Made by a program: the position numbers and the translations under genes. Positions 25,046 through 53,811 of a stretch of 64,000 nucleotides of DNA are shown here, in pieces. The notes below the pieces were generated by a model. That model saw nothing but the letters and a program-made list of their open reading frames with translations, made no database searches and was not told the DNA's origin. The first letter of the stretch is position 1, and each line of letters begins with the position of its first letter. Source of the stretch: Macrostomum hystrix (lineage: Eukaryota > Animalia > Platyhelminthes); contig CATNEN010000039.1 of the NCBI GenBank assembly GCA_950097015.1, positions 15,128,001 through 15,192,000 on the forward strand. The letters run 5' to 3'.

Positions 25046-25126
25046 TTTTGTCATTTTCCTTCTGTCATTTGTCATTTTGTCATTTTTATCACTTATTATT
25101 CAAAAAATGCCTTTAGGGAAGCCAAT

Positions 25127-27383: not shown

Positions 27384-29995
27384 CTATAAAAAAATTGAAG
27401 CCCATTTGATGCCGTCACCGAAGCTGTCCATGTGTGGCTCATACTCACTTCCTAAACCATGGTTGCCCAGCTGCAACGCCTCTGCAGTGCTCATCTCCAA
27501 AGCTGACATTGCGCCTAGCCGACGATTGAGGCGTCCAATCAGCAAGTCTTGCCTGTCGCCCATGAAGGTTGCCATGGCGATTCGAGTATTCGAATAAATT
27601 GCCGCATTCCCGTGCACAATCCTGCTCTTCTGCAGCTTCGGACTTGAAATCTTTATCATCCTGTCGCTCTCCTTGTCCGTAAGAACGTCGCGAAAGAGCG
27701 ACACCATCGGAGCGTCGTTCAGCAGCTCGGAAAGACGGCACACAATGTTGGATGAAGGGAAATTGCGCCTGGGATCGCTGCCGTCTTTGCCGAGCCTTTT
27801 GTAATTCTCTTTGTCCACGGACAACTTATCAAAGCAATCAAAATCAGTCAGACAGATGATTATCTACGAAGTGAGTTTTATTCACATCTGACCGTCGCCA
27901 GAGCGTCTCCATAGTTCTTCTAAAGCCGGAGTGAGACTGCTAGGAATTGTGTAGTTTTTTTAGGGAGAAGTACTAGCGTACATTGGGATCATTGTTTATT
28001 TGGATAAGAATGCACAACTTCAGTTACAAGCTTCATTACCGTAGTCATGTACTTCTGTAAAATTTCCAGCACGGCGGTTAGTCGCTTCGACATTTTTTCA
28101 GGGGCGAATTAGCATCCACTGCATGCCCAGCAGTTCCAGGCTCTGGTTGAAAGCCCGGCTCACCAGCTGCAGACTGTCGTCGACTACAATTTTCGTTCTG
28201 TTCACAAAGAAAAGTAAGAAAACTGTGAAACCTCAGGGCGCAAAGGCAAGGATGCAGGGTGCACAGGGGCGTAGGATGCAGGGTGCACAGGGGCGTAGGA
28301 TGCGGGGCGCACAGGGGCGAAGGATGCGGGGCGCACAGGGGCGTAGGATGCGGGGCGCACAGGGGCGTAGGATGCGGGGCGCACAGGGGCGTAGGATGCA
28401 GGGTGCACAGGGGCGTAGGATGCGGGGCGCACAGGGGCGTAGAATGCAGGGCGCACAGGGGCGAAGGATGCAGGGTGCACAGGGGCGTAGGATGCAGGGT
28501 GCACAGGGGCGTAGGATGCAGGGTGCACAGGGGCGTAGGATGCAGGGCGCACAGGGGCGTAGGATGCAGGGCGCACAGGGGCGTAGGATGCAGGGCGCAC
28601 AGGGGCGTAGGATGCAGGGTGCACAGGGGCGTAGGATGCAGGGTGCATGCAGGGTGCACAGGGGCGTAGGATGCAGGGCGCACAGGGGCGTAGGATGCAG
28701 GGCGCACAGGGGCGTAGGATGCAGGGTGCACAGGGGCGTAGGATGCAGGGCGCACAGGGGCGAAGGATGCAGGGCGCACAGGGGCGAAGGATGCAGGGCG
28801 CACAGGGGCGTAGGATGCAGGGTGCATGCAGGGCGCACAGGGGCGTAGGATGCAGGGTGCATGCAGGGCGCACAGGGGCGTAGGATGCAGGGTGCATGCA
28901 GGGCGCACAGGGGCGTAGGATGCAGGGTGCATACAGGGCGCACAGGGGCGAAGGATGCAGGGCGCACAGGGGCGAAGGATGCAGGGCGCACAGGGGCGTA
29001 GGATGCAGGGCGCACAGGGGCGTAGGATGCAGGGCGCACAGGGGCGTAGGATGCAGGGTGCACAGGGGCGTAGGATGCAGGGTGCATGCAGGGCGCACAG
29101 GGGCGTAGGATGCAGGGTGCACAGGGGCGTAGGATGCAGGGTGCACAGGGGCGTAGGATGCAGGGCGCACAGGGGCGTAGGATGCAGGGCGCACAGGGGC
29201 GTAGGATGCAGGGTGCACAGGGGCGTAGGATGCAGGGTGCATGCAGGGCGCACAGGGGCGTAGGATGCAGGGTGCACAGGGGCGAAGGATGCAGGGTGCA
29301 CAGGGGCGAAGGATGCGGGGCGCACAGGGGCGTAGGATGCGGGGCGCACAGGGGCGTAGGATGCGGGGCGCACAGGGGCGTAGGATGCAGGGTGCACAGG
29401 GGCGTAGGATGCGGGGCGCACAGGGGCGTAGAATGCAGGGCGCACAGCGGCGAAGGATGCAGGGTGCACAGGGGCGTAGGATGCAGGGTGCACAGGGGCG
29501 TAGGATGCAGGGCGCACAGGGGCGTAGGATGCAGGGCGCACAGGGGCGTAGGATGCAGGGCGCACATTGGCGTAGGATGCAGGGTGCACAGGGGCGTAGG
29601 ATGCAGGGCGCACAGGGGCGTATGATGCAGGGCGCACAGGGGCGTAGGATGCAGGGTGCACAGGGGCGTAGGATGCAGGATGCAGGGTGCAGGGTGCAGG
29701 GTGCACAGGATGCGGCAGGGCGCATCGCACAGATTGCAGGGTGCTGACGCAGACAACCAAGCAGAAAGCGTACGCGAGAGTTGCGTCAAAGGACTTCTCT
29801 TCCGTCAGGAGCGATCCAACATCCAGGTGACCTCTGGCGATGGAGCCAGCTGAGATGTATTGCACATATTGTAGACGCAGGAGGGCGTTCGCAGCTCCGT
29901 CATAGTCGTCAGATGTCGGCAGTTTGGCTTTCCACGGATTTCAGCATGACATCGGCGGTCTCGACGCACTGTCCAACAAACAAGGCACCGCCACT
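27384..29995 (-). pseudogene. P4HA: Prolyl 4-hydroxylase alpha subunit-like gene, 3' part (disrupted)
   Basis: LPTSDDYDGAANALLRLQ at ~29850-29920 matches the P4HA N-domain motif GAAxALxRLQ. The catalytic domain at 27384-27750 reads PMVSLFRDVL..RLNRRL..STAEALQLGNHGLGSEYEPHMD (HxD iron ligands). Frameshifted, and interrupted by the Polinton. Confidence 0.8.
28250..29720. repeat. 24-bp GC-rich minisatellite (~60 copies)
   Basis: Unit gcacaggggcgtaggatgcaggg(t/c), with occasional 11-bp inserts. It explains the stack of periodic ORFs here. Confidence 0.97.
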
Positions 29996-30416
29996 AGTAG
30001 TATGGGTTAACAGAACTCTGCCGCAAGGAATTCCGCGGAAATTCCGTGGGGCCCTAGTTTGCGAACATAGCGCCTATGTTTCACATAGCAGAACTCTGCC
30101 GCAAGGAAATCCGCGGAAATTCCATGGGACCCAGTGCATGTACATAGGTCCATGTTTTACATAGCAAAACTCTGCCGCAAGGAAGTCCTCGGAAATTCCG
30201 TGGGGTCCTAGTGTGTGAACAAACGCCATGTGTTTGCATAGTGGACTCTGTCGCAGGTAAATCTGTCTGAGAGGGAGAGAGGCAGTCAGTGCAGTCTGAT
30301 AAACCGATTGTTTATTCAGTTCCACTCCTCCAATGGGAATTTCACTTTTGCTCTGGTCTGTGTTATTTTTTCATATGAAGACAACAACAAAACAACTGTT
30401 GGTCTGGGGAAAACAG
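29996..30416 (+). repeat. Polinton left terminal inverted repeat
   Basis: Reverse complement of 44889-45309; I noticed only two substitutions. Confidence 0.95.
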
Positions 30417-30586
30417 TGAAACCACCGTCTGTTTGCAGTGGGTATGGCCAACACTGTAGAAATAGGACAGTGGATGCGTAGCATGGATACATAAACTCTG
30501 CCTAATGTTATTATATGTTTTCTTAGTATTATATATGCGCCCACAGTCTCACCCACCCCATTACATTAACCCACCCCACTCCGCTG

Positions 30587-30597
30587 GTATATAAGGG
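30587..30597 (+). promoter_or_regulatory. Putative TATA box for the rightward Polinton genes
   Basis: gtatataaggg lies ~85 bp upstream of the PC4-like ATG. Confidence 0.45.
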
Positions 30598-30674
30598 TGG
30601 GGATTTTTTTATTGTTAAGAGAGGATTTCTTTAAAACTAATAGCCATTTCGTCACGTAAGTTTGACCTGCTACC

Positions 30675-31436
30675 ATGGATCTTAGCGACGGCTTCAAAGT
30701 TCAAGTGCAGGAGTATGAAGGCAATAGATTCATCGCTATCCGACGCTTCTACTCTTCTGACGGGGAGCTGAAGCCTGGAATCCCTGGATTCAACTTGAAC
30801 GTACACCAATGGGAGAAGCTGAAGCAGCTAAGGCGCCAACTCGTGCAGGCTGCAGTCAACCGACGAAACGTCACTGCCAAGCTGGGCTCCGACAAGCTCG
30901 TAGAAGTCAAGCGAGGAGTCATCTGGCTCAAGCGACTGCCGGAGGACTGCACGGAGGATTTCCTGAGACGGAATTCGATCGAGATGACTCCCCGTCTGTG
31001 GCGAGCGCTGTGGTGCCATGTCGACCGGATCAGTAGTGAGCTGAGAGGAAAGTCACCGGAGTGCGAGTACGAGCTGGACCCTCAGGACATCAAGACCGAG
31101 CCGGACATCGAGAATCGGGCGGGCCAACACTCTAGTGAGGATGCGGACGACGAGAAGACGCTGCTGCTGATTTCCGAGTCAGACAACGCAACCTCCGAAC
31201 CGCTTCCAGCTGCAGCCCAAATTTCGACGCCCAAAGCATTCGGCTGCATCCCACAGCAGGACAGCGACCTGTCTCAGGATCCTTACTGGTACCAGGCCCG
31301 AGCGGCTGCGGGTCTCAGTGTCAACTGCTTGATCGGAAGCCGCAAGCGCAAGCAGCCATGGCCTCTGCGTAGGAGCGATGCGATCAAGTTTCCGAAGCTG
31401 ACGGATGACTCAGATGAAAACAAGGACAACGAGTGA
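30675..31436 (+). CDS. PC4/Sub1 (transcriptional coactivator p15)-like ssDNA-binding protein
   Basis: KVQVQEYEGNRFIAIRRFYSSDGELKPGIPGFNLNVHQWEKLKQ aligns by eye to the PC4 core [40 protein letters not shown]. There may be a second degenerate repeat (IEMTPRLWRAL), then an acidic tail. Confidence 0.85.
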   Translation: MDLSDGFKVQVQEYEGNRFIAIRRFYSSDGELKPGIPGFNLNVHQWEKLKQLRRQLVQAAVNRRNVTAKLGSDKLVEVKRGVIWLKRLPEDCTEDFLRRNSIEMTPRLWRALWCHVDRISSELRGKSPECEYELDPQDIKTEPDIENRAGQHSSEDADDEKTLLLISESDNATSEPLPAAAQISTPKAFGCIPQQDSDLSQDPYWYQARAAAGLSVNCLIGSRKRKQPWPLRRSDAIKFPKLTDDSDENKDNE

Positions 31437-31717
31437 ATTTCCAAGTGACAGTACATGCGTCAAATAATTTCTAACTTCTTTCATTTGGTCAAATGCGCGC
31501 TAAGCTTATTATCTATCCAGCCATATTTCAGCAATATAGGCTACAGTGTAATTTTGCTCTGTGCTTCTCGCAATAGCTAATTTAACTGTCTTTTTTGGCT
31601 TTATTTCTCGGTATATGTATCAAGACATTTTATAAACTACATTGTGGCAATGCAACTTAAGAAAGTTGCTAAAGACAATAAATAATATTGATTCTGACAT
31701 CCTCTTCATGTTGGAAA

Positions 31718-32785
31718 ATGGAAAAGCTTTACTACAATCCCGCTCAGCCGGCCAGTTTCTCAGGTGCATCAAAGTTGCAGCAGCAACTAGGGAAAAATAA
31801 TGAGGGGAAATCTAGAAAATACATTGAGCTGTGGTTAACTGAACAGCCCGTGCACACACTGCACAGGTCGGCTAGAAGGCGCTATCCCAGAGCACCAATC
31901 ATAGTGAGAGCGATAGATGACCAGTGGGAACTTGACCTGGTCGAGATGATCCCATTCGCCAAGTACAACAAAGGCTACAAGTACATCCTCACTTGCATTG
32001 ACGTGTTGTCTAAATCAGCATGGGCCAAGCCGTTTAAGAACAAATCAGCTGCAGAAGTAAAGTCCGCATTCGAGAGCATTTTGAGATGCTCAATGCGCCA
32101 GCCTCGCACAGTCCGCACAGATCAGGGAAAAGAATTCATAAACACTAATTTTAGGCAGTTCTGCATACAGCGGGGAATCCTGGCCTTCAAAACTAACAGT
32201 GAGCAGAAAGCTGCAGTAATTGAGCGATGGAACCGAACTTTGAAGAGTAAGATGTGGAAATATTTCACTCACAAGAGCACACTGCTCTGGATTGATGTGC
32301 TGCCTAAGCTGGTGAAATCATACAACAATACTTACCACAGAAGTATCAAAATGGCACCGACAAGTGTCTGCAAAGAGAATGAGTCTGAGGTGTGGATGAA
32401 TCTGTACGACGGAAAGGCAATTGAGACTGTACAGCGACCCAAGAAGCCAAAGTTCTGTGAGAAACAGTCTGTGAGAATTTCAAATGCACCCAGGCTGTTC
32501 CGAAAGGGATACAAGGCCAACTGGAGCGAGGAGGTATACACTGTAGTGTGCAGGGCACCAAAGCACTACCCGTACATGTACAAGATCCGAGACATGAAGG
32601 GTGAGGAGATTCGCGGGCTCTTTCACGAGTATGAGCTGCAGGCTGTTCCGGAATCACAGCGGCTGTATGTCATTGAGAAGGTTTTGAAGTCAGAAAAGCG
32701 CAATGGGAAAATCCGCTATCTTGTCAAGTGGGCTGGCTACAACTCCACAGGCTGGGTGGATGAAAAGGACTTAAGAAAAGTGTAG
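31718..32785 (+). CDS. Polinton retroviral-like (RVE/DDE) integrase with C-terminal chromodomain
   Basis: Starts MEKLYYNP. DDE triad WELDLVEM / TDQGKEF / IERWNRTLK. Chromodomain YVIEKVL..YLVKWAGY..WV. Confidence 0.95.
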   Translation: MEKLYYNPAQPASFSGASKLQQQLGKNNEGKSRKYIELWLTEQPVHTLHRSARRRYPRAPIIVRAIDDQWELDLVEMIPFAKYNKGYKYILTCIDVLSKSAWAKPFKNKSAAEVKSAFESILRCSMRQPRTVRTDQGKEFINTNFRQFCIQRGILAFKTNSEQKAAVIERWNRTLKSKMWKYFTHKSTLLWIDVLPKLVKSYNNTYHRSIKMAPTSVCKENESEVWMNLYDGKAIETVQRPKKPKFCEKQSVRISNAPRLFRKGYKANWSEEVYTVVCRAPKHYPYMYKIRDMKGEEIRGLFHEYELQAVPESQRLYVIEKVLKSEKRNGKIRYLVKWAGYNSTGWVDEKDLRKV

Positions 32786-32818
32786 ATAAGCTGCAGATAA
32801 AAAAAATAATCAGATATA

Positions 32819-33631
32819 ATGAGAAACATTGTCATCAACAGCAACCATGGTGAAGGTATTTCTAGTGATTTTTATTTTTACCTTGCTTCACCTCTTTACC
32901 TGGATCGAAATGTGGACTATGAGGCAGCTCTTGTGGAAATCCATCTACCTGCTGCATGGTTCAATCTTGACGAACCTTACTGCATCTCTGTCTCAGATGG
33001 AAGAGAGCATGAGACCCTGGTTCTTCAACCTGGATGCTTTGGCAGAGTGGAGGAGCTGGTGGAGTCTTTGAATGAGCTGCTAGCCAACTCACGGCTGCAG
33101 TTCTTTGATGCTAGAAGTGATGGAGATGCTGCAATGGAGGCTGATCAGTCAGGTCTGATGGGACATTCTGCACCTGCTGCGGACAATGGAATAAGGTGTA
33201 CAATTGATGGCTCAAGGACAGTGGTGCAGAATAACACAGCTCAGGTGGAGCTGTATCTCCCGCCTCACCGGATTCTGCAGTGGCTTTGATTCGGAAGCCA
33301 AGGATTAAAAGTCCCACCTGGGCGTCTTGTATCTGAGCAGTTCATCGGCTGCCCGCGCACCAACCTAATCAATGTGCACTGCAGCATCATTGAGTCGAAT
33401 AACTGCAACCACAGCTCCCTGCTGAGAACTGTTAGAATGAGAGATGACATTCAATGGGGTGGCTATGTGAGCAAAGTGTTTAAGAAAACGATATTCTTCA
33501 CCATTCCTAGAGTCATCTATCTACATGGTATTCGAGTGCAGTTGCGAGATATTTTTGGAAGCCTACTGATCGCGCAGTCCAGCAGTCCAGTTTTGCTAAC
33601 AATTCAGATCCGTGAAAAAAGAATTTTATGA
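32819..33631 (+). pseudogene. Polinton minor capsid (penton-like) protein with an in-frame TGA at 33287-33289
   Basis: The N-terminus (VINSN..SSDF..L..PL.L...YEAALVEI) and C-terminus (NVHCSII..LLRTV..IRVQLRDIFG..LTIQIR) look typical of Polinton mCP. Both halves are in one frame, and WL*F probably derives from WLGF. Confidence 0.75.
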
Positions 33632-33996
33632 ATTACCAGCAGCTGATTCGGCATTACTCGGGAGTTCAAACCCTTGGGGAGAAACCGGTACTCTATGGCT
33701 GCGGCAGCGCTCCAGGGCTCATGACGTACCAACCTCCACCGGTTGCTACAACTGCAGGTGCAGCGCGGCTAATAGACAAAAGGGAAAGTAAAAAGCCATC
33801 TGTGCGATCGAAAAGAAAACGAAAACATTCTGCTAAGGGTGACACAGGAAAGAAGAGTTCAAGAAAAAATCAGACGAGGGCCGGAAACAAAAAGCTTAAG
33901 AAGAAGAGAAAAACTAGGAAACAGAAAAAGGTAGGACAAGGAAAGCAAAAAATCTACAGAAAAACTGTGAAACGCGTACTGGATTCTCTGTCCTAA
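33628..33996 (+). CDS. Small Lys/Arg-rich putative core (DNA-condensing) protein
   Basis: Very basic C-terminal half; lies between the mCP and MCP genes; LYGC/G fits the adenain cleavage consensus. Confidence 0.6.
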   Translation: MNYQQLIRHYSGVQTLGEKPVLYGCGSAPGLMTYQPPPVATTAGAARLIDKRESKKPSVRSKRKRKHSAKGDTGKKSSRKNQTRAGNKKLKKKRKTRKQKKVGQGKQKIYRKTVKRVLDSLS

Positions 33997-34000
33997 CAAT

Positions 34001-35281
34001 ATGGCTTACGGGTTCAACCCTAGACTCGATCTGTTCAAGGCGCCTGTGCTTCAGACCTGTATTGAGAAATCTGCTTATGTTGACATTCATCCTGTAAACT
34101 CTATTGTTGCAAACTCACCAATTGAATTTGACTGCCATCAATCAGCTGATGAGTACACTGACCTGCTGAATTCCTTTCTCTATATTCGTTGTCGCGTTGT
34201 GAGATTGGGTGGTGCCCTGATCAGGGAGGATATTGTGACTGATGGTGCTGTTACCGAGCGCAGAGACAGCCAAGTGCACCCGGAGAATTTTGTTCTAGCT
34301 ACGGCCTTCTCGGATGTAATTGTCAGCATCAACCAGCGCATTGTCTCTGGAGGAGACCAGCTGTATCCCTACCATGCCTACTTCAAAGCTCTCATGAGCT
34401 CCTCCGATGCCCAGCAGCTTAAGTTTTACCCTGCTGGATTCCTGGAACCCGACTCTGCCGATGAGAGCCACACCGAGAGGCATATGATCTCCAACTGGGT
34501 GGAATATGCGGGACCCCTCCTCAGCGACATCTTCCAGTGCCCCGTGTTCCTGCTCAACAACTTGCACCTGCACATCAAACTAGTGCCCAGCGATGGAGCC
34601 TTTGCCATTAGAGCTCCTGCCCTCAACACCACAGCTTACCGAATGGAAATTTCCCACTGCATCCTGTACCTTCGCCGTGTCAAGGTGGTGCCCCACATCA
34701 GCCTGGCTCACGAGCAGGGACTAACGAATCAAAATGCTCTCTACCCGATCGAGCGAACTGAAATGCAGAACTTTATCCTGCCCCATGGAATTCAGTCAAA
34801 GAACATCGAGGGATTCACGCACGGAAAGCTCCCGAAGTTCATCATGCTGGCATTTGTGAGCCACCGAGCCTTCAACGGTCATCACCACTCCAGCCCGTTC
34901 CAGTTCCAAAGCTTCGAGCTGAGCCAGCTAGCTCTAAAGAAAGGGGGTGAATCAATGTGCCATGGGGCATTCACACCCGAGAACAATTCGTTTGTGAGGG
35001 AGTACCTGCACTATTTGAAAAGCTGCCAATCTGCAAGCTCCAGTGGTTCAGTTCCGTGGATTCCCTACCAACTGTTCTCGAACGAGAACACAGTGTTCGC
35101 ATTTGATCTCACACCTGAGGGAGCAGCTCTGTGGTACGGCCAGAAGGAGGGAAACCTGCGGCTGGAGATTCGCTTTCGACGGGCACTGGATGAAGCCGTG
35201 TCGCTGATTGTCATGTGCGTCTATGACTCACTGATTGAAGTAACCAAGCACAGGGAGCTCTTGCTGGACTATTCATCTTGA
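34001..35281 (+). CDS. Polinton major capsid protein (double jelly-roll, PY/hexon-like)
   Basis: 426 aa with LDLF..P..QT.IE...YVDIHP, PIEF, YTDL.NSFLY, YPYHAY, GKLPKFI, AFNG..SPFQF, VFAFDLTP and GNLRLEIRF; position within the morphogenesis module fits. Confidence 0.9.
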   Translation: MAYGFNPRLDLFKAPVLQTCIEKSAYVDIHPVNSIVANSPIEFDCHQSADEYTDLLNSFLYIRCRVVRLGGALIREDIVTDGAVTERRDSQVHPENFVLATAFSDVIVSINQRIVSGGDQLYPYHAYFKALMSSSDAQQLKFYPAGFLEPDSADESHTERHMISNWVEYAGPLLSDIFQCPVFLLNNLHLHIKLVPSDGAFAIRAPALNTTAYRMEISHCILYLRRVKVVPHISLAHEQGLTNQNALYPIERTEMQNFILPHGIQSKNIEGFTHGKLPKFIMLAFVSHRAFNGHHHSSPFQFQSFELSQLALKKGGESMCHGAFTPENNSFVREYLHYLKSCQSASSSGSVPWIPYQLFSNENTVFAFDLTPEGAALWYGQKEGNLRLEIRFRRALDEAVSLIVMCVYDSLIEVTKHRELLLDYSS

Positions 35282-35293
35282 GAGTACTGAAAG

Positions 35294-35809
35294 ATGGACT
35301 CAACTCAACTGTACTCTCTAACAAGGAGCTTTTTACCCAGCTCCAAAATCGTTATACTCACTCTCTGCTTAAAGCAGAGAGCTGTCACTGTAAATGCGGG
35401 CCAGAATTTGATGAAAAAATGCTTCAACCGAAATAAAATAATTTTCATTCTGCTAAAACACAGCGTCAGTTTTGGACACTGGGTTGTATGCCACTTTGCT
35501 GATGGAAATACAGTGGAGTTATTCAATTCTCTTGGTTGGGATGAAGAAGCTTTAGCTGTAATTCATGAATACTTGAAGGATATAGGTGGGATGGTTCAAT
35601 TTCAACTGGTTTGCAACGTCAATAAAATCCAAAGCGCTCAGTCGGACAAGTGCGGCCTGTTTTGTGTCTACTTTGCCCACCAGAGGCTAGCTTTGAAGCG
35701 GTCCTTCCTGGGTATTCTCACGAGTCTGCATGCAAAGAAGAAATGTCACCTGAATGATAAAGTACTCAGGCAATTTGAAGTTTGCTTAAGAAAAACCCAG
35801 AAACCTTGA
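35294..35809 (+). CDS. Adenain-like cysteine maturation protease
   Basis: GHWV (His), ELFNSLG, IQSAQSDKCGLFCVYF (Gln and catalytic Cys). Confidence 0.88.
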   Translation: MDSTQLYSLTRSFLPSSKIVILTLCLKQRAVTVNAGQNLMKKCFNRNKIIFILLKHSVSFGHWVVCHFADGNTVELFNSLGWDEEALAVIHEYLKDIGGMVQFQLVCNVNKIQSAQSDKCGLFCVYFAHQRLALKRSFLGILTSLHAKKKCHLNDKVLRQFEVCLRKTQKP

Positions 35810-35835
35810 GTATATTCTGAAAGTCTATTGAAGAG

Positions 35836-36483
35836 ATGGAATCTCAGAAAGCATGCTACGATGTTCGCCTGCGTCAGGGCAGCTGCATGATTGTCAGCGG
35901 TCCCACAAATGCGGGAAAGACAACCTTTGTGAAGCATCTAATTCAGTATAGGGAAGTCCTATTCGACATTCAACCTGGCAGAGTGCTCTGGTACTATGGG
36001 ATTCCACAGCCGGCGCATGCTGAGCTAAGCCGCCTGGGGGTCCACTTGCAGCAGGGATTCCCCTCCAACTTTGAGACAGCACTCAGATCCAATGACCTGG
36101 TTGTGTTTGACGACTTGATTGACGAAAGCTCAAGTTCTGCTTCAATGCGAAATATCTTTACTGGAATAGCCCATCATCTGCCCTGCTTTCTGGTGATGCT
36201 GACACAGAACATGTTTTTCAAGGGAAAGGAGTTGCGGACGATGAGTTTGAATGCCATGTACTTCGTAATCATGAAGAACCCCAGAGATCAGCTGCAGATT
36301 TCCGCATTGGGCAGGCAGTGCTTTCCCGAGAAGCCGAGTTTTCTGCTTGCGGTGTTCAAGCATGTCACATCGCAGGGTAGGGGGGCATATCTGTTTCTGG
36401 ATTTCCACCCGTCCACCCCCGATGAGCGGCGAGTCCGAGCGCGAGTTCTGCCCAATCAGCGCCCCCATCTGGTCTATGCTTAA
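35836..36483 (+). CDS. A32/FtsK-like genome-packaging ATPase
   Basis: Walker A SGPTNAGKT, Walker B LVVFDDL, then LTQN, RTMSLNA and KNPRD. Confidence 0.93.
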   Translation: MESQKACYDVRLRQGSCMIVSGPTNAGKTTFVKHLIQYREVLFDIQPGRVLWYYGIPQPAHAELSRLGVHLQQGFPSNFETALRSNDLVVFDDLIDESSSSASMRNIFTGIAHHLPCFLVMLTQNMFFKGKELRTMSLNAMYFVIMKNPRDQLQISALGRQCFPEKPSFLLAVFKHVTSQGRGAYLFLDFHPSTPDERRVRARVLPNQRPHLVYA

Positions 36484-36532
36484 GAATGGATCACTTGTGA
36501 TCATCCTGGTCATTCAAACAAAGAAAATTAAT

Positions 36533-36849
36533 ATGGAAGTGTTTGATTGCCATCAAAGTTTGTTTGAAGTTCTAGCCTCATATGCTAAATACACTATTCG
36601 CCTCAAGCGCATGTTAATAAAAGAAAGCCCAAAAGAAGTTGGAATTTTCCTTGCTGAAGCCTGCCACAACCTGCTACAAGACAATTTACCCTTCTCACCT
36701 CAACTGTACTTAAAAAATCAAAGGAAATTATCCGCAGAATCCCTGCAAAGAAAAGAAAAGCTGATTTGCTGACTGCTGCTTTCATCAAGATTCTTCCAGT
36801 TCTGCTGAAACTTGTGAAGAAGAGGAGGGCAAATGCACAAATTCAATGA
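36533..36849 (+). pseudogene. Small Polinton morphogenesis-module protein, apparently frameshifted near 36770
   Basis: LAEACHNLLQDNLP..SLQRKEKL, with an amphipathic tail (AAFIKILPVLLKLV) in another frame. Resembles the small ORF that typically follows the Polinton ATPase. Confidence 0.45.
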
Positions 36850-37614
36850 AATGGTTTTAATTGCGAAATCAGAGTATGAAATGCTGACACAGAGTGCAAA
36901 GCCCACTGAGTCTGTAACTGATGCGACCATGAAACAGGCGCAGATGAAGTGTGATGAAATTCTGTTCGCTGAAGATTGTCCTGACGATGTGAAGACTGCC
37001 ATGTACCAGAGTGCAATGAAAAGCCTGCTGGTCAAACGCAAGCAGCTAGGAAACGAAGTGAGAGGTAGTGAGGCAAAAGTTTTGAAAGTGGAGATGACAG
37101 GTAGAAACTTGGATGAAAAGATCTATCAGTCAGTGCCACAGAAGTTCAAGGCAAGAGCTCGCAGTCTATGGGCCATCCTGTCCGGTAATGAGTCTTCAAT
37201 CCGAGTTTATGACAATGGGGAGGTCGAGATTTCAGGCCGCTTGATCCCCGCCTCAAACATTGTGGATTTAATTCAGCACACTGTAAGAGACTCACAGAGT
37301 GCCAGTGAACCAACTGGCTGGAAAGAATTCATTGATTTACTAAGACAAAAGGACCTAAATGTCCCTTTGACTGCAGTTGGAAAGTTTGCTCGCAAGCAAA
37401 TTCTGCAGCACACTGCTGATGGCGCTGATAGAGTTCGCAATGAACAATCTCCAATCAAGGGATTAGGCAGTGAGTGTGCGTGGCTAAGGCTTAACAAAGG
37501 CAGAAGAAACGCTATAATAACTCGAATGAAAAATAGAAAAATATTTTCAAAAGTTTCAAGCGGTGTCCATACCAAAAGAGCTCGAAGTATGGCATCACCG
37601 GTACCACCACCACC

Positions 37615-37655
<41 letters not shown>

Positions 37656-38251
37656 TCGAATTGAATACAGCAGCTTCAACCCTGAGGGTCACCAATCTGG
37701 TTGGCGGAGTGGATCTAAGACTGACTGGAGGCAGGGGCGCCCAGCTTCCTTTAAGGGAGCTGGCTCTCAGCATGGCTAATGTGATCTACCGGCCCGTTTG
37801 GCCCCGAGTGCTCATCAAGCAGATGCGTCAACCCAGAGTCACCCTGCTGCTCTACCCAACTGGTCAACTGAGCATCTGCGGCGCAAAGTGCTACTCCGAC
37901 TCAGTCAGAGCTGCCCATCGCTTCGTGGCTATGCTACATCGCCGAGTGCCGGCTCAACTGCTGCCTCGTCAAGCTGTCTGCTTGAGAATCAAGACTATCA
38001 CTGCGCATGGCAAACTTAATTTTAGCAATGCACTTCCCTTGGCGAATCTTGTTGATGCATTGCCGAACGCTGAATATGAACCCGAAACTTTTACTGCTTT
38101 AATATGTAAACTCCGTAATTGTAAATGTTTGCTATTTCACAATGGCTCATTTGTACTCAGTGGTGCAAAGTCAATAAATGTGCTGGAGGAGGACTTATCT
38201 CATTTGCTCAACCTTCTCTCTGCGAATTCGTTGTTTTTTCAAAATAAATAA
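36833..38251 (+). CDS. Conserved Polinton protein (PZ-like; IPASNIVDLI..PTGWKEF..NVP) in frame with a C-terminal TATA-binding-protein-like domain
   Basis: Single 472-codon frame. The first ~220 aa carry Polinton-type motifs and the last ~190 aa are a two-repeat TBP core. Confidence 0.85.
37589..38251 (+). CDS. TBP: Divergent TATA-box-binding protein (TBP/TRF-like), possibly translated from its own ATG at 37589
   Basis: Repeat 1: VTNLVGGVDL..LPLRELALSMANVIYRP..MRQPRVTLLLYPTGQLSICGAK..SVRAAHRF. Repeat 2: LPLANL..AEYEPETFTALICKL..CLLFHNGSFVLSGAK. These are colinear with canonical [31 protein letters not shown] and YEPELFPGLIYR..LLIFVSGKVVLTGAK. Confidence 0.88.
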
Positions 38252-38474
38252 ATCGAAAGCGTGTTCCAAGAATCTAGCAAATTTTCATGCCGATTGAAAT
38301 GTTGTTGAACAAAATCAGTGCGTCAGATATATTTTCTTTCATCGTTGAATTTTATTTTGTAAAAAGTATTTCGATTCTTTAAATTTAATCGCAGACGTGT
38401 TGCGATCGTTTTTTAACATGCAGAATTAGCAGAAATTAAAATTACTGGATTTCTGTCAAATAATCAACGCGTGA

Positions 38475-41400
38475 TTAATCCTCATCATGATGGCGTGAAC
38501 TGGCTAGGCGCCGCTTGCGTTTGGTGATACCATTTTGATGCTGCTGCTGCTGTAGAAGTCGGAAGTGTCCGAACGGGAGACTACAGTTCGGTCCTAGCCA
38601 GGCACGCTTGTCCTCCCAAATGCTAAGCGCACACTTCCTTTGTTGCAGAGTGAAGAGTCTGTGTCGTATGCTGGCAATACGCTGAACAACGACAGAGAGG
38701 CTGCAGAGCTCTTTGAAGACCTTCAAGTAGTCGCTATGAGCAATCTCCCTCTTGACAACACATCCCTGAATACCTTTAGCTCTTTTCTTCTCGGCTGATT
38801 CATCGCTTGCCCTAAACGAGTAAAGCTTCGGTCTTAGGAGCAGCCACTCCAGATAGTAAGCTCCTGCTGCTTCATCCTTGATGCAACCCAGACGAGCCTT
38901 TAATTCGTTCGAGAACAGTGCATGCTGGGGTGGATAGTTTGAGGTATCTAATAACCGCTTCGACTTGAGCAGAGGCAGAACTCCAGACTGAACGCTCATG
39001 TTGCTGATTGAAAGAAAGAAAGAGTCGGTATCTCCACCACAGAGTCTCACACTAGCTCCTTCCTGCTCAATCCATGGCTTGAGCTTGTCGTAGAAAAGTT
39101 CATACATGATCATCTTCGAATAGTCCAGAACGCACTGTCCAATGAAGATTGGTCGGTCAAGTTTAATCTTGGTCTTCTGCAACTCCATAATGCTAAGCGA
39201 GCCGGTAATAATGTTGAAACTTGTCACTGACGGCTTCGAGGCGAGCACCTTCGCCTTTGCAACATCGGTGCAAATTCTAATGTCGCGTCTCTTACGCACA
39301 TTTTCCATTGTCTTGCCAAACAATGCGTTGTTTTTCAGCTTGTAAAAATATTTTTCAAAGCTGTTTGATGCAGCAGCTCGCTTTGCACTATTTTTCTCGA
39401 CATACGAAGCAAAGACGGGCTCTTGTCGGAACTCAATCATGCGATTGATACACTTTATTCGCATTCCATGTCGTAAGTAAAATGCCAGTATGGAAGAATG
39501 AAGTATATAGGACTTCTTGTCATGGCAGGTGAGCATTAGCTTCTCTGTTGGATGGTAGGCAGAGTCCTCTTTACCAAATTGCTTCCACAGCTGCTTCATG
39601 TATTCAGGAAACTCGCTGAAACTCGGCGCCATCTTTTCTGGCGCAAATGGTAAATCTTCTGTGCTGGTATGAATCTCTATCGAGTACAGAAGGTCAGCAT
39701 CGATAAGGTAGGCAACAGAATCTGTCGTTTGCAGTCCTTGAATACGATCATCTGTCCATAGGAGCAACTCTTCTTCGTCTAGCCAGCGGAAGTCTCCAAC
39801 TGGCAAATGCATCGTGAGAGCTTGTCCATAGAGGTTGTTGGCGTCTACTGCGAGGAGCTCAGTGCGATCAGCTGGTGGAGTTGTCAGGTCTGTCTCACTC
39901 TCATCATCATCGCACTGAGAGCTTACATTACGTGGGCTTGCCAACACTCGGTGAACGTTCACAAAAGTTATGCCTCCTCGAATTCCACACTCAAACATTG
40001 AATACATTTGCGGATCTGTTAAAAGTTCGATTGGAGACCTGATGGACTTTAGCGCAGAAGCAAAAGATAGTCCTGGAGTTGTAATGAAATGAACAGGATC
40101 AAGACCATCCTCTCGAAGACTGAGCTTCCGAAAATTTTCAAACACATCTGCAAGCTGTCTAATGTCCAACTCAAGGTAGCGCAGCATGTAGTCCTTCAAA
40201 TTGGTCACCTGAAATTCATGCCAGGCTCGCTGTGCATGCTCATAATCCGAGTCGCTGCAGTGACTCTTCGTAAGAAGATTATAAAAGTTTTCTTTGCTGG
40301 GAAGTACCATGTCATTGAGCACATCGATCTTCGTCAGATAATCATACGGAAAGATGCCTTTGTTGAACAACACTTCCGATGACAGACTCGGATACGAGTT
40401 TTTAAGCCGAGCCGTGATTGGGCATTCTTCTTCTGGCAAATTCTTGATCAGCTGTGCCAGGCTGGCATTCAGGAACTGATTGGAATCGATGAATTGAATA
40501 GTGAAATAGAGCGGCTTGATCTTGCCCTCACTCTCATATTCATCGATTTTGAATTCAATCTTCATAGCGAGAAACTGCTCAGGATTCTGCGGTATGACTG
40601 AAATTCTCCATCCTTCCATGAGACCCAACGCTGTTGACAACATCAGATGAATGTCATACCCTTTTAAGTTGTGCATGATGATGGGTAGAAAGCGTCTCTT
40701 TAGTCTCGCTTGCATGTTGCAGGGTGGGCAAGCGGCTCCTCGGAATATACCACTCAGGTGATCATGATCCCAGTGTTTCTGGGACTCGTTCTGAAACTGG
40801 CTTCCACAGTAGCAGCAGGCTACGGCTTCTCGAAACAGCTTTTTAGCTGCATCAGTCTTTATGGCTGCCTGCCTACTGAACTCCGTGTTCCAGCCGTATA
40901 CTTCTCGAGCGAGCTGCTCCAGTGACTGCAGGAACTCGGCAATGCACTTGTTGGGATCATCGCTAACAAAAGTGCTCACTTTGTCATCAGCTCCCCGAGG
41001 TGCTAATCCTGTCATGCCTTCTCTGTGCACCACAATGTAGCCCGCGGCAACGGCAACATGCTCAGTGACCTTCTTCGTAGATGAACCTGCTGGTAGATCG
41101 TCTTGACATGGTACATTCAGTGCTTCAAAGTCGGCATAAACAACGAATGGTGGACTGATTGTTTTTTCCCATGACGAAAATTGCAAAAAATTGTGATTTA
41201 CATCTGGCAACTCTTCCTTTACGTTGATCACTCCAGGTTGACAAGGAGCTCGACAGTGCTCTTCAAAGGCTGAGTCACTGTGAAAGGGCATCAAGCAGCG
41301 CTCACACCACTTTCGCTGATGCAGGGACACTTTGCTATTGAGAAGCCGGTTGATGCTTGAGACAGCGCACCAATGACCTGAGACCTCATCTTCCGATGGC

Positions 41401-42590
41401 GGAACGAACAAGAGCAGAACAACTCTTCGATCTTTCATTGTGGCTGCAGTAGGCACGCGGAGGACTTGAGCAGCATCATTCTCCCAGATGAAAACTGTGA
41501 AGCATAGTCCTGTGTTTTGTCTCTCAACAGCAGCAAGGTCGTTCACGTTGACTGGCAAGTTCAAACCACTCATGTCGAGTTCATCCAGCCAGTCGGTGTA
41601 CGAGGATTCGCGTTGCGCTGATTTTCTTATTTTGCTGTTTTCCTTGTGTAGGAAAGCAAGGCATGCATAACGGAAACAATTTTCACCATTGCTTGGAGGA
41701 CAAATAACAGCCTTCTTCCGTAGAAGCAGAGTCGGCAGTACAAATTCTGCAGCACGCCCTGTATAGTAGGGAACTCGATCGACGAGAGCAGAGTAAAGTT
41801 CAAAAAAATTGACCTTGTCAATCATCCAACCGCTACCGTTGGCGTTGTACACATCGACTTTGCGCTCCAGCTCCGTAAACTGCTGCCTCCACCAATCATC
41901 GAACTCCTCCACATCTACCAGCAATCCGAGTTGTGTGCTCATCCATTTATCCTCCGCATTTACAACTTCTAACGCCTGCACCCTGATCATGTGCAAATTC
42001 AACTTAATCTGAGCTCTCACGAAGCAATTTTCAGAGGAGTCGAGGCGAACTTCAAGACACTGCAGGACAGCGTTTTTGCTTAAATCAAGAAACTCGAAAG
42101 GCTCAGTGATAGATTTCGGAGTAAATCGATGAACTTGAAGAACATCATCGTGAGCGCTATTTTCCAACGTCAGGAAGAAAGATGGTCCTACAATTAAAGA
42201 GGAAGAGGAAGACAACAGTAATAATATTGGTTTCATTTATTTATTGCTTTAACATTCAGGCTCAAATACTTCTCTGTTTCACCTCATCCAATTTTAAGCC
42301 CAACGATTAATTTCACTCCATATCCTGTTCATATGCCCCCATTTTAACTTATTTCCCGAGAAATAATCCTAAATTTAAAACGATACCGTAGCAGAGGCAT
42401 GTCTACAACGAGCTAGCAAGCAAAAACTAACATAATAAGCACATCATCCACAAGCACGTGTGCCCTTGTCAAGTAGTTCAAACAAATAAGTCAGGCATAA
42501 AATGTTTCACTTACTGCTTGACCCGAACTCGCGACTGACAGCTGGGTCCAGCAGCGCTTCCTTGAGACTCGATGAGGCCCCAGAAGACAT
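38475..42590 (-). CDS. polB: Protein-primed family B DNA polymerase (pPolB); probable first exon 42590-42515 and main exon 42187-38475
   Basis: Exonuclease motifs VYADFE, MHNLKGYD, FIDS, KGIFPY and YLELD. Polymerase motifs DANNLYG, KLKNNALFGK, GDTDS, RPKLY and RAKG. EndoVII-like insert CCYC..DHDH.SG.FRGAAC..CN. The frame is uninterrupted for 1253 codons. Confidence 0.96.
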
Positions 42591-43112
42591 CACAGAGAAT
42601 TATGGTGAAGCTATGCGGCACCACTCAGAAAGCAAGTCAATGCTGCTGAAATTCAGTTTCAATTTCATTTTGCATGCAAATTATACATCGATATCGATAG
42701 ATCAAATTCTAGTCTGGTCCACATAGAGTCAAGAGTTGAAACCAATCCTAAAAGCAAAGAGTTTGAGTGAGTGATTGAATCCTAGCTGCTATAGAACCTG
42801 ATTTAAAGAAAAAATACGTAAAACCGTGAATTCATAAAAATTAATGATAACAAATGCGTCCGGAGCATCATTTCAATCCATTTTATTTCTTCCAAAAACA
42901 CATGACCACAGAAAATCATGCTCTAAAAATCACTTCTCGCTCCTTATCATCATCATAATAAAAGTTACAATGTGAACTGTCTCAAGGCAAATAATATTAT
43001 CATTTACTTATATATAACAGCAAAAATAGAACACGGATGCCGACTTTAAATGCTGTCACTCGAGACACAACGCTTATGGGAAATTGGAATTAACAGTAAT
43101 CTATTGTTCGAT

Positions 43113-44429
43113 CTACTGCTGAACACTACTCAATTTAATGCACACACCACCCCCAAAGTCAATGGTGTACTCGCCGACAACGCTGCTGGGAAGCACGAGC
43201 TGCATGAAGACTGGGACTGGTGCGGCTTCTACAACTTTGACTGCCTCTTGCATAACAGTAGGCTGAGCAGCTGGCTCATCCTGCTCTAGTTCATGCAGAA
43301 TGTCCGTCAAGCTGATGTCCATGTTCACAATTGCTCTGGCCTGCTCCAGATTTTTTGCGGCAATTGGAGGGGGTCGTTGCTGCTGCTGCTGCTGCTGCTG
43401 CCGCTGTCCTTCTGTATTCCCGGCATCTTCCAAGTCAAACTCGAGGTCTTCGAAGAATGCTGTGTTCAGCTCCTCAGCGGGTGAATCAAGCTGAATAATT
43501 GGAATGCCATCTTCATCATCATCATTCTCATGATAGTTAATAACCTGATCAGGCCTGAATTCAGCTGCGACCAGCTCAACTACATTAGCGGAGGCAGCAG
43601 TGGCGGCTGCGGCATCGAGGACATCAGGTGCGACGGTGGCGTGGACATCAGGTGCGGCGGTGGTGTGGACATCAGGTGCGATGGTGGCGTGGACATCAGG
43701 TGCGGCGGTGGCGTGGACATCAGGTGCGGCGGTGGCGTGGACACCAGGTGCGATGGTGTGGACATCAGGTGCGGCGGTGGCGTGAACATCAGGTGCAACG
43801 GTGGCGTGGACATCAGGTGCGGTGGTGGAGTGGACATCAGGTGCGGCGGTGGCGTGGACATCAGGTGCGATGGTGGAGTGGACATCAGGTGCGGCGGTGG
43901 CGTGGACATCAGGTGCGGCGGTGGCGTGGACACCAGGTGCGATGGTGTGGACATCAGGTGCGGCGGTGGCGTGAACATCAGGTGCAACGGTGGTGGAGGG
44001 TTGAACATCGGCTGCAGCGGCGGAGGCTGCAACAACGACAAGGGCGACTCGGGTGGCAGCAGAGGAGGTATCAGACATTTCAGTGCAGATCCCTCGAATA
44101 GTCTGGCTGAGCGTGCTCACCGGCTGGCGCATTCGCTCAGACTCTTTGCGAGCTTCGTCGTGCTGAGCAGCTTCGAGGGCAGCAGATCGGGACGCATCCA
44201 TGTCGCTTGGAGCACCCCAATTGATCACTAAATGGTTTCTGTGATTTTTTATTTGTGCTCGAGCGTTGAAAACTTCGACTGATTGGCACTGCATGCAAGC
44301 AAGCCAGCGACTAACTCGGCATGAGTCTTTTGACTTGTGCCATTTTAGTCCGCCCAGCTCGCACAGGCCGCAGTCGATGCACACCTCGAACACGTAGGAT
44401 GGGCAGCGCGATTTGTTTTTTGCAGTCAT
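43113..44429 (-). CDS. Polinton accessory protein: Cys-rich N-terminus, APDVHATA repeats, acidic/Gln-rich C-terminus
   Basis: Long ORF inside the TIRs with CxxC pairs (CIDC, CMQC) and an in-frame 21/24-bp repeat array. No family recognised. Confidence 0.65.
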   Translation of the reverse strand: MTAKNKSRCPSYVFEVCIDCGLCELGGLKWHKSKDSCRVSRWLACMQCQSVEVFNARAQIKNHRNHLVINWGAPSDMDASRSAALEAAQHDEARKESERMRQPVSTLSQTIRGICTEMSDTSSAATRVALVVVAASAAAADVQPSTTVAPDVHATAAPDVHTIAPGVHATAAPDVHATAAPDVHSTIAPDVHATAAPDVHSTTAPDVHATVAPDVHATAAPDVHTIAPGVHATAAPDVHATAAPDVHATIAPDVHTTAAPDVHATVAPDVLDAAAATAASANVVELVAAEFRPDQVINYHENDDDEDGIPIIQLDSPAEELNTAFFEDLEFDLEDAGNTEGQRQQQQQQQQRPPPIAAKNLEQARAIVNMDISLTDILHELEQDEPAAQPTVMQEAVKVVEAAPVPVFMQLVLPSSVVGEYTIDFGGGVCIKLSSVQQ

Positions 44430-44653
44430 GGCGGCTCCAGTAGGATAGTTTTTTAATCTCTGGCGACGCCACTGATTAATTCCAGGTGTAATATATAAAT
44501 ATCCAGGTAGCTGTTCTTCAGAAGAACATAGCACCAGTGTTTACTGTTTGGCTATGTTTGTGCAGATCGATTTTTTACTACGAAAATAGAAAATTTTTCT
44601 ATTATAAGTTTATGGCTTGCTTACAAGCCATTCCACTTCACATGCATGCCGCC

Positions 44654-44654
<1 letters not shown>

Positions 44655-44697
<43 letters not shown>
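44655..44697. repeat. (TG)n microsatellite
   Basis: About 21 TG units. Confidence 0.95.
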
Positions 44698-44698
<1 letters not shown>

Positions 44699-44888
44699 GG
44701 CCAATTACAGCAGGTGAGAATAAAGTCATCCCCTGCCCACCAACCCCCAAAAAAGCACTGTACAAACCCCATTCCAGTGCGCCTGCACTCACATTTTCCC
44801 CGGCCGGCCTCTCCTCCTATCTCTGCAGAGTCAACAACCCCAATGCAAAGAGATAGACCGGCCTCTCCTCCTATCACTGCAGTGTTCC

Positions 44889-45309
44889 CTGTTTTCCCCA
44901 GACCAACAGTTGTTTTGTTGTTGTCTTCATATGAAAAAATAACACAGACCAGAGCAAAAGTGAAATTCCCATTGGAGGAGTGGAACTGAATAAACAATCG
45001 GTTTATCAGACTGCACTGACTGCCTCTCTCCCTCTCAGACAGATTTACCTGCGACAGAGTCCACTATGCAAACACATGGCGTTTGTTCACACACTAGGAC
45101 CCCACGGAATTTCCGAGGACTTCCTTGCGGCAGAGTTTTGCTATGTAAAACATGGGCCTATGTACATGCACTGGGTCCCATGGAATTTCCGCGGATTTCC
45201 TTGCGGCAGAGTTCTGCTATGTGAAACATAGGCGCTATGTTCGCAAACTAGGGCCCCACGGAATTTCCGCGGATTTCCTTGCGGCAGAGTTCTGTTAACC
45301 CATACTACT
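44889..45309 (-). repeat. Polinton right terminal inverted repeat
   Basis: Reverse complement of 29996-30416. Confidence 0.95.
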
Positions 45310-45560
45310 GCCACTCCGTGCCCATCTTCCGGATTGTCAGGAATGCCTCGACCGGGTCATCTCCCTCTCCTTGGATACCGCGCTAAGCGCTTCCTTGTTC
45401 ATCAAGGTCGAGTTTCGAAGGTCGTCAACAAACTGGCTGATTCGGTGCAGCTTGAGTGTCTCGCTGTCGAGGAAGGCATTCAGCGCCTCGGCCAGCTGCT
45501 GCTTCGCCGAAGACAGCTTTGCAATATTCGAGGTCGAAGTAAACACATGACTCTGCCGAT
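45310..45560 (-). pseudogene. P4HA: Prolyl 4-hydroxylase alpha subunit-like gene, 5' part of the interrupted exon
   Basis: FTSTSNIAKL..LAEALNAFLDSETLKL, then after a frameshift DPVEAFLTIRKMGTEW, matching P4HA HPVNAFKLMKRLNTEW. The codons for EW overlap the Polinton TSD. Confidence 0.75.
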
Positions 45561-46063
45561 GAGAATGAGAGAAAAATTGTCAGACCTAATAGAGCGATAA
45601 AATAATTTTCCATTTCAACGTATTGGAAAACACAATCCGTGAGATTTACAAGCAGCTCTTGGATATCGGGGTAGCATTAAATCTTGCTTAGCTCTGGCTT
45701 CCTGTGTCTAGCGATATTAAACAATTTAAATGTATGTTTTCTTTCTTTGTTTATTTACTGGAATATATCAGTGGTTAGCTAAAGCCTTTGACTTCAACTC
45801 ACTCCAGAATTTGCAGACACGAAGGTCTTTTATTTATGAGCATTCATGGCTTAAAAAAGTAACCAATTTTTCTCACAACATTTAGCTGTATAATTTATAA
45901 CAGCATTAGTTGGCGGCAACATTTTCCATGCGTTTGCATAGCGGCCAAGCAGTCAATGGACTGAGGAGCTGTATACAGCCATTGGGTGCTACGAAAGGCC
46001 GAACCAGGCCAAGCCGTTGCCCCATTCAACACCTATAAAATCCTGTATCATCTGTCCCCTAGC

Positions 46064-51629: not shown

Positions 51630-51783
51630 CTCGCAAGCAATTAATAGAAAAGTAGTCACGAATTGACCTTGACCTGTCTAACTCTGAACTCTGAAACAGT
51701 TTAATTTTGTTTCTTTGACATTGTTATTGTTATGCCACGTGGCTATTTTCCTTATGTATACGCGTGTACATGCATACTGTATA

Positions 51784-53752: not shown

Positions 53753-53811
53753 GCAAACGAAATGTTGAGGCTAAGTTTTTTCCTGACTTTGTCGACAATG
53801 GTCAAGAAAGT

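Follow-up and report, generated by a model that had tools for sequence, protein, structure and literature searches.

It has long been asked whether animal Polintons are true viruses, and the timing of their genes has received little attention. A 64,000-nucleotide (nt) stretch of the Macrostomum hystrix genome (assembly GCA_950097015.1, contig CATNEN010000039.1, positions 15,128,001 to 15,192,000 of the forward strand; hereafter the window, numbered from its first letter) poses the question of timing in a concrete form, since it holds a Polinton/Maverick element at 29996-45309 (15,314 bp) that encodes a protein resembling the TATA-binding protein (TBP) and carries one short word, CTTAAGAA, upstream of five of its genes. 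Based on sequence and modelling, we lean towards the view that the element TBP binds CTTAAGAA before these five integration, capsid and packaging genes and would thereby turn them on late, using host RNA polymerase II (Pol II). An element-encoded TBP together with a matching box opens the promoter question to direct tests, for which short oligos and a single small protein suffice.

That the element is a whole Polinton/Maverick is virtually certain in our assessment. Its ends, that is, the target-site duplications (TSDs) and terminal inverted repeats (TIRs), are as follows:

29990..29995, unstranded: left 6-bp TSD, GCCACT, an exact match to the right copy
29996..30416, plus strand: left TIR, 421 bp, AGTAGT end, with 3.3 copies of a 76-bp unit at 30011-30263
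44889..45309, minus strand: right TIR, 421 bp, with 3.3 copies of the 76-bp unit
45310..45315, unstranded: right 6-bp TSD, GCCACT, an exact match to the left copy

The sequence AGTAGTATGG starts the element on both strands. The two TIRs pair over 421 bp, except for mismatches at their positions 36 and 154, and lose pairing from 422; in a repeat search, no inverted repeat of the window is longer (425 nt at 99%). Ends of the form (AG)3 or (AGT)2 are among the features by which vertebrate Mavericks are recognized, as described in PMC8097293, and the long TIRs observed here carry the latter. GCCACT stands on both sides of the element and as a single copy at an empty site in X4, one of four contig sets (X1-X4, from four of the seven listed runs of one study with two organism labels) that we compared with the window over 29710-43600 and in which no contig spans the whole element. 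The other three runs, of the same species, contained hardly any of the element's words, and none of the runs with the element was listed as RNA. Also present are an rve integrase, a double-jelly-roll major capsid protein (MCP), a protein-primed DNA polymerase B (pPolB) whose layout is TP-vOTU-EXO-PALM (recognized at the sequence level, by PF03175 and motifs), and genes for a minor capsid protein, a packaging ATPase and an adenain-type protease, the minor capsid being assigned by a same-slot profile rather than by fold. The eight conserved uninterrupted open reading frames (ORFs) of an 'intact' Maverick are not all open here, given a stop in the minor-capsid gene, a frameshift in the PM-slot gene and a read-through from PZ into TBP. 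That is, the element is a Polinton/Maverick by all the defining features tested, yet not an intact copy.

An earlier, sequence-only reading of this DNA had reported an exact TSD (gccact), AGTAGT termini and 421-bp TIRs with about two mismatches, and a whole viral genome with defined ends, all of which is borne out here; the integrase, MCP, protease, ATPase and pPolB genes that it called open are indeed open (355, 426, 171, 215 and 1253 aa, respectively). Its full virion-morphogenesis module holds for gene content and was overstated for coding state, because the minor-capsid gene is truncated and the PM-slot gene frameshifted in this copy. It did not include the PC4-like gene, the TBP-like gene or the prolyl-4-hydroxylase-alpha-like (P4HA-like) target gene, which are added here. 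Complete Polintons are ordinary (134 intact vertebrate Mavericks are counted in PMC8097293), and completeness alone is unsurprising; the TBP gene and the shared upstream box are more interesting.

Genes were taken from the ORF map with Pfam and NCBIfam searches; those from the PC4-like to the TBP-like gene follow one another on the plus strand, with pPolB and the accessory ORF438 on the minus strand:

30588..30594, plus strand: TATATAA, a canonical-type TATA box 87 nt 5' of the PC4 ATG
30675..31436, plus strand: PC4-like protein, 253 aa (Pfam PF02229, E 4.5e-11), in which residues 3-51 form the PC4 domain and are followed by an acidic low-complexity tail
31656..31663, plus strand: CTTAAGAA box, -62 from the integrase ATG
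31718..32785, plus strand: 355-aa rve integrase bearing a chromodomain at its C-terminus (rve E 1.7e-12; the Chromo match, E 1.1e-4, is below cut-off), with D-D-E motifs
32770..32777, plus strand: CTTAAGAA box, -49 from the minor-capsid ATG
32819..33631, plus strand: minor capsid (penton-slot) gene, with an in-frame stop at 33287-33289 in the window copy
33628..33996, plus strand: PW-slot ORF, 122 aa, basic, named by position and basic tail only; TTAAGAA at -148
33895..33902, plus strand: CTTAAGAA box, -106 from the MCP ATG, within a Lys-rich coding stretch and the weakest of the five
34001..35281, plus strand: MCP, double jelly-roll, 426 aa, by AlphaFold2 model and Foldseek
35294..35809, plus strand: 171-aa cysteine protease of the adenain type (the Peptidase_C5 match, E 0.0085, is below cut-off), with His62, Cys120 and Asn78
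35785..35792, plus strand: CTTAAGAA box, -51 from the ATPase ATG
35836..36483, plus strand: packaging-type ATPase, 215 aa, Walker A GPTNAGKT and Walker B VVFDD
36479..36486, plus strand: CTTAAGAA box, -54 from the PM-slot ATG
36533..36849, plus strand: ORF of the PM slot, which lies between ATPase and PZ, with a frameshift near 36.7 kb; its N-part matches a four-sequence PM-slot profile (E 6.1e-6)
36833..37588, plus strand: PZ-like protein (PZ-slot profile E 3.9e-17), running into TBP as a 472-aa ORF at 36833-38251
37589..38251, plus strand: TBP-like protein, with a Pro/poly-Ala leader ahead of its two TBP repeats; AATAAA at 38243 and 38247
38475..42236, minus strand: pPolB, 1253 aa (DNA_pol_B_2 E 7.8e-17, Endonuclease_7 E 1.2e-7), exonuclease and palm motifs intact
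43113..44429, minus strand: ORF438, accessory, 438 aa, with a Cys-rich N-terminus, 24-bp tandem repeats at 43619-43993 and an acidic/Gln-rich tail; TATATAT at -68

The box emerged from a comparison of the 140-nt windows 5' of these 12 genes in which no word was set beforehand, against a null of 12 random windows drawn in 2000 trials. The commonest shared 8-mer was CTTAAGAA, found at five genes (the null reaches five in 3 of 2000 trials), and the commonest shared 7-mer was TTAAGAA, found at six (the null reaches six in 4 of 2000). All five CTTAAGAA sites of the element lie on the plus strand, 49-106 nt 5' of the integrase, minor-capsid, MCP, ATPase and PM-slot genes, with none on the minus strand of the element and none in the 48,686 bp of host flank. 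The PC4 and ORF438 genes, on the other hand, have TATA-type hexamers at -87 and -68, respectively, and no CTTAAGAA box. One stray TTAAGAA inside the integrase gene differs in the X1 and X4 contigs.

The TBP-like ORF encodes 220 aa, that is, a Pro/poly-Ala leader followed by a saddle of about 190 aa with the two repeats of the TBP family (PF00352; Pfam TBP E 2.5e-24 over 2 stretches). Its AlphaFold2 model (pLDDT 95.6) matches human TBP (1cdw) in Foldseek at E 1.9e-14 and a TM-score of 0.81, the yeast, plant and archaeal TBPs at about 0.8, and viral TBPs at 0.66-0.76. A search of 1.84 billion representatives returned 1071 matches, five of them, three from M. lignano plus one Logan and one JGI entry, at 52-86% identity, with a drop to about 30% (36% at most) for those ranked next. 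In sibling families, a different sequence precedes the TBP gene (loose ends at 37673-37677 in X1, X3 and X4), and, judging from these sequences, TBP is kept as a gene across related families. M. lignano gene models are the only close relatives that carry a name.

The saddle has changed on its DNA side. We compared residues on an alignment of 149 TBP cores, taking the roles of the kinking Phe, the DNA-face Asn and the acidic stirrup residues from yeast TBP. Of the four kinking Phe, the third and fourth are kept, with Tyr at the second and a different residue at the first; the Asn of repeat 2 is Thr, and both stirrup Glu are kept. The protein thus departs from the canonical eukaryotic pattern of four kinking Phe and both Asn, and it may be regarded as a natural TBP with likely shifted specificity. 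In a mixture-model quick tree (6 of 155 rows dropped as partial: P0002, P0003, P0013, P0115, P0140 and P0158), it falls within a set of 26 short, fast-evolving TBPs (SH-aLRT 93), and in an LG+G4 tree of 51 chosen rows, 25 rows (the element protein and 24 others) split from the eukaryotic and archaeal TBPs at 99/96. A His after the fourth Phe occurs in 18 of the 26 divergent-group rows vs. 7 of the 123 others. One member of the group is a 190-aa TBP at 8624-9196, right after the protease gene, in a distant metagenomic Polinton, L005, the MCP of which is 29% identical; another is the mite record RWS21521.1, the one named animal source in cluster look-ups of 10 members, which otherwise led to short contigs. 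L005 comes from a metagenome scan with MCP that gave 27 MCP-bearing loci (including L005, L008, L010 and L011), most of them partial, of which one carries a TBP. The metagenome scan with the TBP alignment gave no match, nor did scans of viral_contigs with TBP, MCP, P0065 and the MCP alignment, and a protein search with a divergent-clade profile returned mostly canonical TBPs. Recent capture of a host TBP was considered as an origin and is not supported, the LG+G4 tree placing the element protein outside the canonical clades.

Under the favored reading, the cycle would run as follows. As in known Polinton biology, the rve integrase would integrate the element, protein-primed replication would start at the TIR ends, and a capsid would assemble from the MCP, minor capsid, protease and ATPase; rve-mediated integration and protein-primed replication are established for Polintons, as described in PMC11161782 and PMC8097293. 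Early genes (PC4-like, ORF438, perhaps pPolB) would be read by host TFIID from ordinary TATA boxes. The element TBP would then read the C-TTAAGAA variant through its changed saddle residues and recruit host TFIIB, via the kept acidic stirrup, and Pol II to the integration and morphogenesis genes. Late transcripts may be nested, sharing a 3' end at the AATAAA behind TBP, and the window copy would probably need siblings in trans for its minor capsid. If it also held for a widespread group of animal Polintons, a more tentative idea, this would be the smallest viral late-transcription switch known, and it would imply a regulated early/late program, and therefore a true viral cycle, in elements whose particles were never seen, and this in a model animal ready for transgenesis.

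Several observations weigh against this reading. Neither a box nor a TATA-type hexamer lies within 200 nt of the protease, PZ, TBP and pPolB genes, and four of the five boxes share letters with codons or with a stop codon. The word TAAGAAG is also found 5' of MCP in L010 and L011, where it may stem from Lys codons. Among the control loci (the longest 8 of the 27), L005, the only other TBP-bearing Polinton found, shows no significant shared upstream word (215 of 500 and 481 of 500 null trials reach its best 7-mer and 8-mer, respectively), while L008 has the canonical ATATAAAG 5' of 7 of its 12 ORFs (null 0 of 500) and no TBP in the 8.8 kb available, which means that Polintons can use per-gene boxes without a visible TBP of their own; the other six control loci show no significant shared upstream word. 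Further, only one of the 24 other members of the divergent TBP group has a known Polinton context, and the trees that define the group have long branches, an LG+G4 model without mixture and, for the quick tree, an SH-aLRT of only 93. The divergent TBPs may have a common origin as far as their sequences go, with long-branch attraction possible.

The overlap with coding sequence raises the alternative that the shared word is a by-product of codons and A-rich gene ends, and TBP a captured passenger with no promoter role. In line with this, TTAAGAA is not enriched across the window (17 seen vs. 12.2 expected; 11 of 100 shuffles). However, the comparison that yielded the box had no preset word and its null seldom did as well, the box sites fall in different reading frames with one of them intergenic, and TBP has been retained across families at the identities given above. 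We regard this alternative as improbable. The L008 boxes bear on a different alternative, namely that the box does act as a promoter element but is read by a host factor, TBP/TRF or some other, while the element TBP damps host transcription by competition, regulates its own early promoters or binds the element ends. CTTAAGAA does resemble a TATA box, and the first half of the saddle is so strongly changed that DNA binding could be lost rather than shifted. On the other side, the box is non-canonical and found at integration and morphogenesis genes only, TATA-type hexamers being retained at PC4 and ORF438, and the protein retains aromatics at three of the four kinking positions as well as both stirrup glutamates. 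This alternative seems to us rather unlikely. We continue to favor the element TBP as the factor that would read the box.

A few contig features touch on transcription. A loose end in X2 at 30623, 35 nt 3' of TATATAA, bears a template-switch-type adapter. This hints, if weakly, that X2, listed as 'DNA?', is a cDNA library and that the PC4 promoter is in use; RNA starts cannot be read from contigs, and strand invasion may be involved. A 4,843-nt X2 contig starts about 40 nt 3' of the minor-capsid box and, for the same reason, was not counted. An X2 contig also bridges the minor-capsid gene to PZ, although one contig is not proof of one transcript.

As for the remaining proteins, pPolB has a Cys187/His288 pair within its vOTU-type N-terminal region and, at residues 462-509 (about 40710-40853, minus strand), an endonuclease-VII-like Zn/HNH-type insertion (Pfam E 1.2e-7); an HNH insertion is described in PMC10748475 as unique to the pPolB2 of oomycetes and nematodes. 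Its weak, partial PF03175 match (61.7 bits, profile positions 11-220 of 468) fits the divergent Beta adintovirus class (Polinton group 1) as outlined in PMC8502044, section 3.1, short of proof. A profile built from 7 metagenome ORFs of the minor-capsid slot matches both halves of the minor-capsid gene (E 6.6e-11 and 3.4e-5; 9.9e-14 when read through with X), while the PW-slot profile gave no match to the 122-aa basic ORF. The MCP has no sequence match in PDB, and the MCP, minor capsid, PW-slot and ORF438 products have none in Pfam or NCBIfam. The AlphaFold2 model of the MCP (pLDDT 71.8) matches PBCV-1 in Foldseek at E 1.5e-14, and also Sputnik and mavirus, and structural superposition (VIA) gives Z 24.5 with a root-mean-square deviation of 4.8 over 364 residues. 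The ATPase is 30-39% identical to those of 8 of the 27 MCP-bearing metagenome loci. In the F-x-S-x-G motif of the protease, Asn78 replaces the Asp of L005 and L008, and this is not private to the window copy, since an X1 contig is identical over that part of the protease. In those two loci, positions 279-554 of L005 hold what we take to be a dUTPase-like ORF, and 7635-8716 of L008, after the protease, presumably exonuclease-like and PC4-like ORFs (motif-based labels).

The contig sets also bear on the age and state of the element. The window copy has three lesions, namely the minor-capsid stop at 33287-33289, the PM-slot frameshift near 36.7 kb and the PZ-TBP read-through. The sequence-only reading had listed the first two as the few lesions visible; both are real, and its count falls one short. 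The stop is absent from the sibling contigs listed at that site in X1-X4; at the frameshift, sibling contigs in X2, in X3 and in part of the X1 depth depart from the window, and the PZ frame closes before the TBP start in those of X1 and X2. A 472-aa PZ-TBP fusion as a family feature was accordingly rejected, as the siblings keep two frames. Siblings are close: about 4.8 kb in X2 shows 14 differences plus 7 gap letters, and three X1 pPolB contigs show 5 differences over 4,055 nt. In X2-X4 the contigs gave no pPolB cover, to which no weight was attached. At least 28 positions (28 of the 40 variant rows listed) have all X1 depth unlike the window, i.e., about 0.2% at least, in line with the divergence between the TIRs. 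An X4 contig represents the empty site, passing from the left flank through a single GCCACT into the right flank, with 30 of 30 letters in agreement with the window from 45316 on, and an X3 contig joins the left end of the element to a flank absent from the window, that is, another insertion. The empty site may be an allele or a homeologue; M. lignano is described as a hidden tetraploid (PMC5704211). The recent integration proposed from the sequence agrees with the 2 of 421 TIR mismatches, the close siblings, the empty-site contig and the second flank, and the picture that would have refuted the sequence-only reading (all other copies highly degraded, no polymorphism) is not what was observed. 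The family is young and apparently polymorphic, and, in a flatworm genus with culture and transgenesis, it is a good place to seek free genomes and particles in natural animals.

Given its three lesions, the window copy is probably not self-sufficient, and a whole intact sibling copy is plausible. Alternatively, the lesions could be assembly errors in an intact copy: none of the three appears as such in the sibling contigs, and about 400 bp of the neighboring host gene contain about four frameshifts, perhaps errors as well. However, two of the lesions are substitutions, which sit among the at least 28 listed positions where all X1 depth differs and which match the TIR divergence, and indel error must be low because the 1634-aa frame of a retrotransposon in the same window and the 1253-aa pPolB frame are unbroken; we consider this explanation a distant second to genuine damage. 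On an axis separate from the promoter question, the family may move only as an intracellular self-synthesizing transposon, its capsid genes being relics or used in the cell, with no particles leaving. Maverick particles have not been observed, as stated in PMC8097293, the minor capsid of the window copy is broken, and viral_contigs yielded no close relative in the scans described above; set against this, MCP relatives, whole and full length, occur at 79, 79, 58 and 38% identity and no minor-capsid stop is seen in the sibling contigs, as would be expected if selection still acted on morphogenesis. A purely intracellular life is, in our view, somewhat unlikely.

The Polinton splits the P4Ha_N region of a P4HA-like gene on the minus strand, the two halves of which flank it:

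45343..45579, minus strand: host P4HA-like gene, 5' part of P4Ha_N (profile 1-45), Pfam E 0.008
29701..29940, minus strand: host P4HA-like gene, 3' part of P4Ha_N (profile 98-134), Pfam E 1.7e-6
27387-27821, minus strand: host P4HA-like gene, catalytic part, PDB 7zsc E 1.2e-14

About four frameshifts fall in its first 130 codons, near the insertion site, and a 1.4-kb minisatellite of 24-bp units (28249-29679) lies inside it. This gene copy was likely dead before the Polinton landed; we read it as a dead copy rather than a sequence error because long frames elsewhere in the window are unbroken.

Elsewhere in the window lies a very young Gypsy-type long terminal repeat (LTR) retrotransposon at about 17281-25800 (plus strand), with LTRs from 17286 and 25166 that show 1 mismatch over 635 nt, a gag with a zinc knuckle, the unbroken 1634-aa pol frame (PR-RT-RH-IN) and a third ORF at 23939-24853 (304 aa, Gln/Pro-rich) with no Pfam match. 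Three fibrinogen-C-like genes are clustered at 48589-57341 (one was scanned, Pfam E 9.1e-37), and among them, 50553-51629 is what we take to be a Helitron-like PIF1 helicase fragment. A DDE transposase fragment (890-1396), tubulin-tyrosine-ligase-like exons (8631-12570) and OPA1 C-terminal exons (62145-63543) are on the minus strand.

How does the element compare with known systems? It shares with animal Polintons/Mavericks, as described in PMC8097293 and, for adintoviruses, PMC8502044, the 6-bp TSD, the (AGT)2 ends and the intronless genes for pPolB, integrase, minor capsid, PW slot, MCP, protease, ATPase, PM slot and PZ, and its dimensions are similar to those given for vertebrate Mavericks in PMC8097293 (TIR mean of 402 bp vs. 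421 bp here; size of 12.7-24.6 kb vs. 15.3 kb here). It differs in that ATPase, PM and PZ follow the capsid module on the same strand with pPolB alone on the other, and in the added TBP-like and PC4-like genes; its MCP is only 22-33% identical, over its full length, to the metagenomic Polinton MCPs found. In the text open to a term search, TATA does not occur as a word in PMC8097293, nor do TATA, TBP and PC4 in PMC11161782 and PMC10748475. We found no description of a TBP or box in animal Polintons in the literature searched, which did not extend to Repbase, subscription papers and the supplementary maps of PMC8502044, any of which may list a TBP. MELD viruses with an adintovirus-like PolB likewise have a TBP-like gene in a mid-size pPolB element; there it is a label in the legend of Fig. 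5 of PMC8502044, in the section on non-animal datasets, and in the preprint of that paper, and sections 3.1, 3.2 and 3.4 of the paper give no promoter box or mechanism.

Cellular and giant-virus TBPs (PF00352) have the same two-repeat saddle, but the element protein is about 25-30% identical to them, has altered first-repeat DNA contacts, lies outside the canonical eukaryotic and archaeal clades and is not nested with the Fasciola or rotifer rows of the LG+G4 tree. Giant viruses use their own TBP with a virus-encoded RNA polymerase, whereas the element has no such polymerase. The closest functional parallel is the vTBP of beta- and gamma-herpesviruses (ORF24 in KSHV, the Kaposi's sarcoma-associated herpesvirus; BcRF1 of Epstein-Barr virus, EBV; UL87 of human cytomegalovirus, HCMV), which works with TATT late promoters as described in PMC7498053: a virus-coded TBP fold, a non-canonical TATA variant at structural genes and canonical TATA at early genes. 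The herpesvirus protein, however, has 752 aa, with a Pol II-binding N-terminal domain, and acts in a six-protein complex, whereas the element encodes only a bare saddle (about 190 aa) that retains the TFIIB-type acidic stirrup, and homologues of the five other proteins of the complex were not recognized in it. The element protein is therefore not a member of that late pre-initiation complex but a functional analogue at most. By this analogy, the best reading is a minimal late-promoter switch, similar to herpesvirus vTBP and TATT. More broadly, and only tentatively, there may be a widespread, as yet undescribed group of animal Polintons in which a minimal TBP, a single 190-residue protein, reprograms host Pol II onto a private late-promoter box, independently of the herpesviruses.

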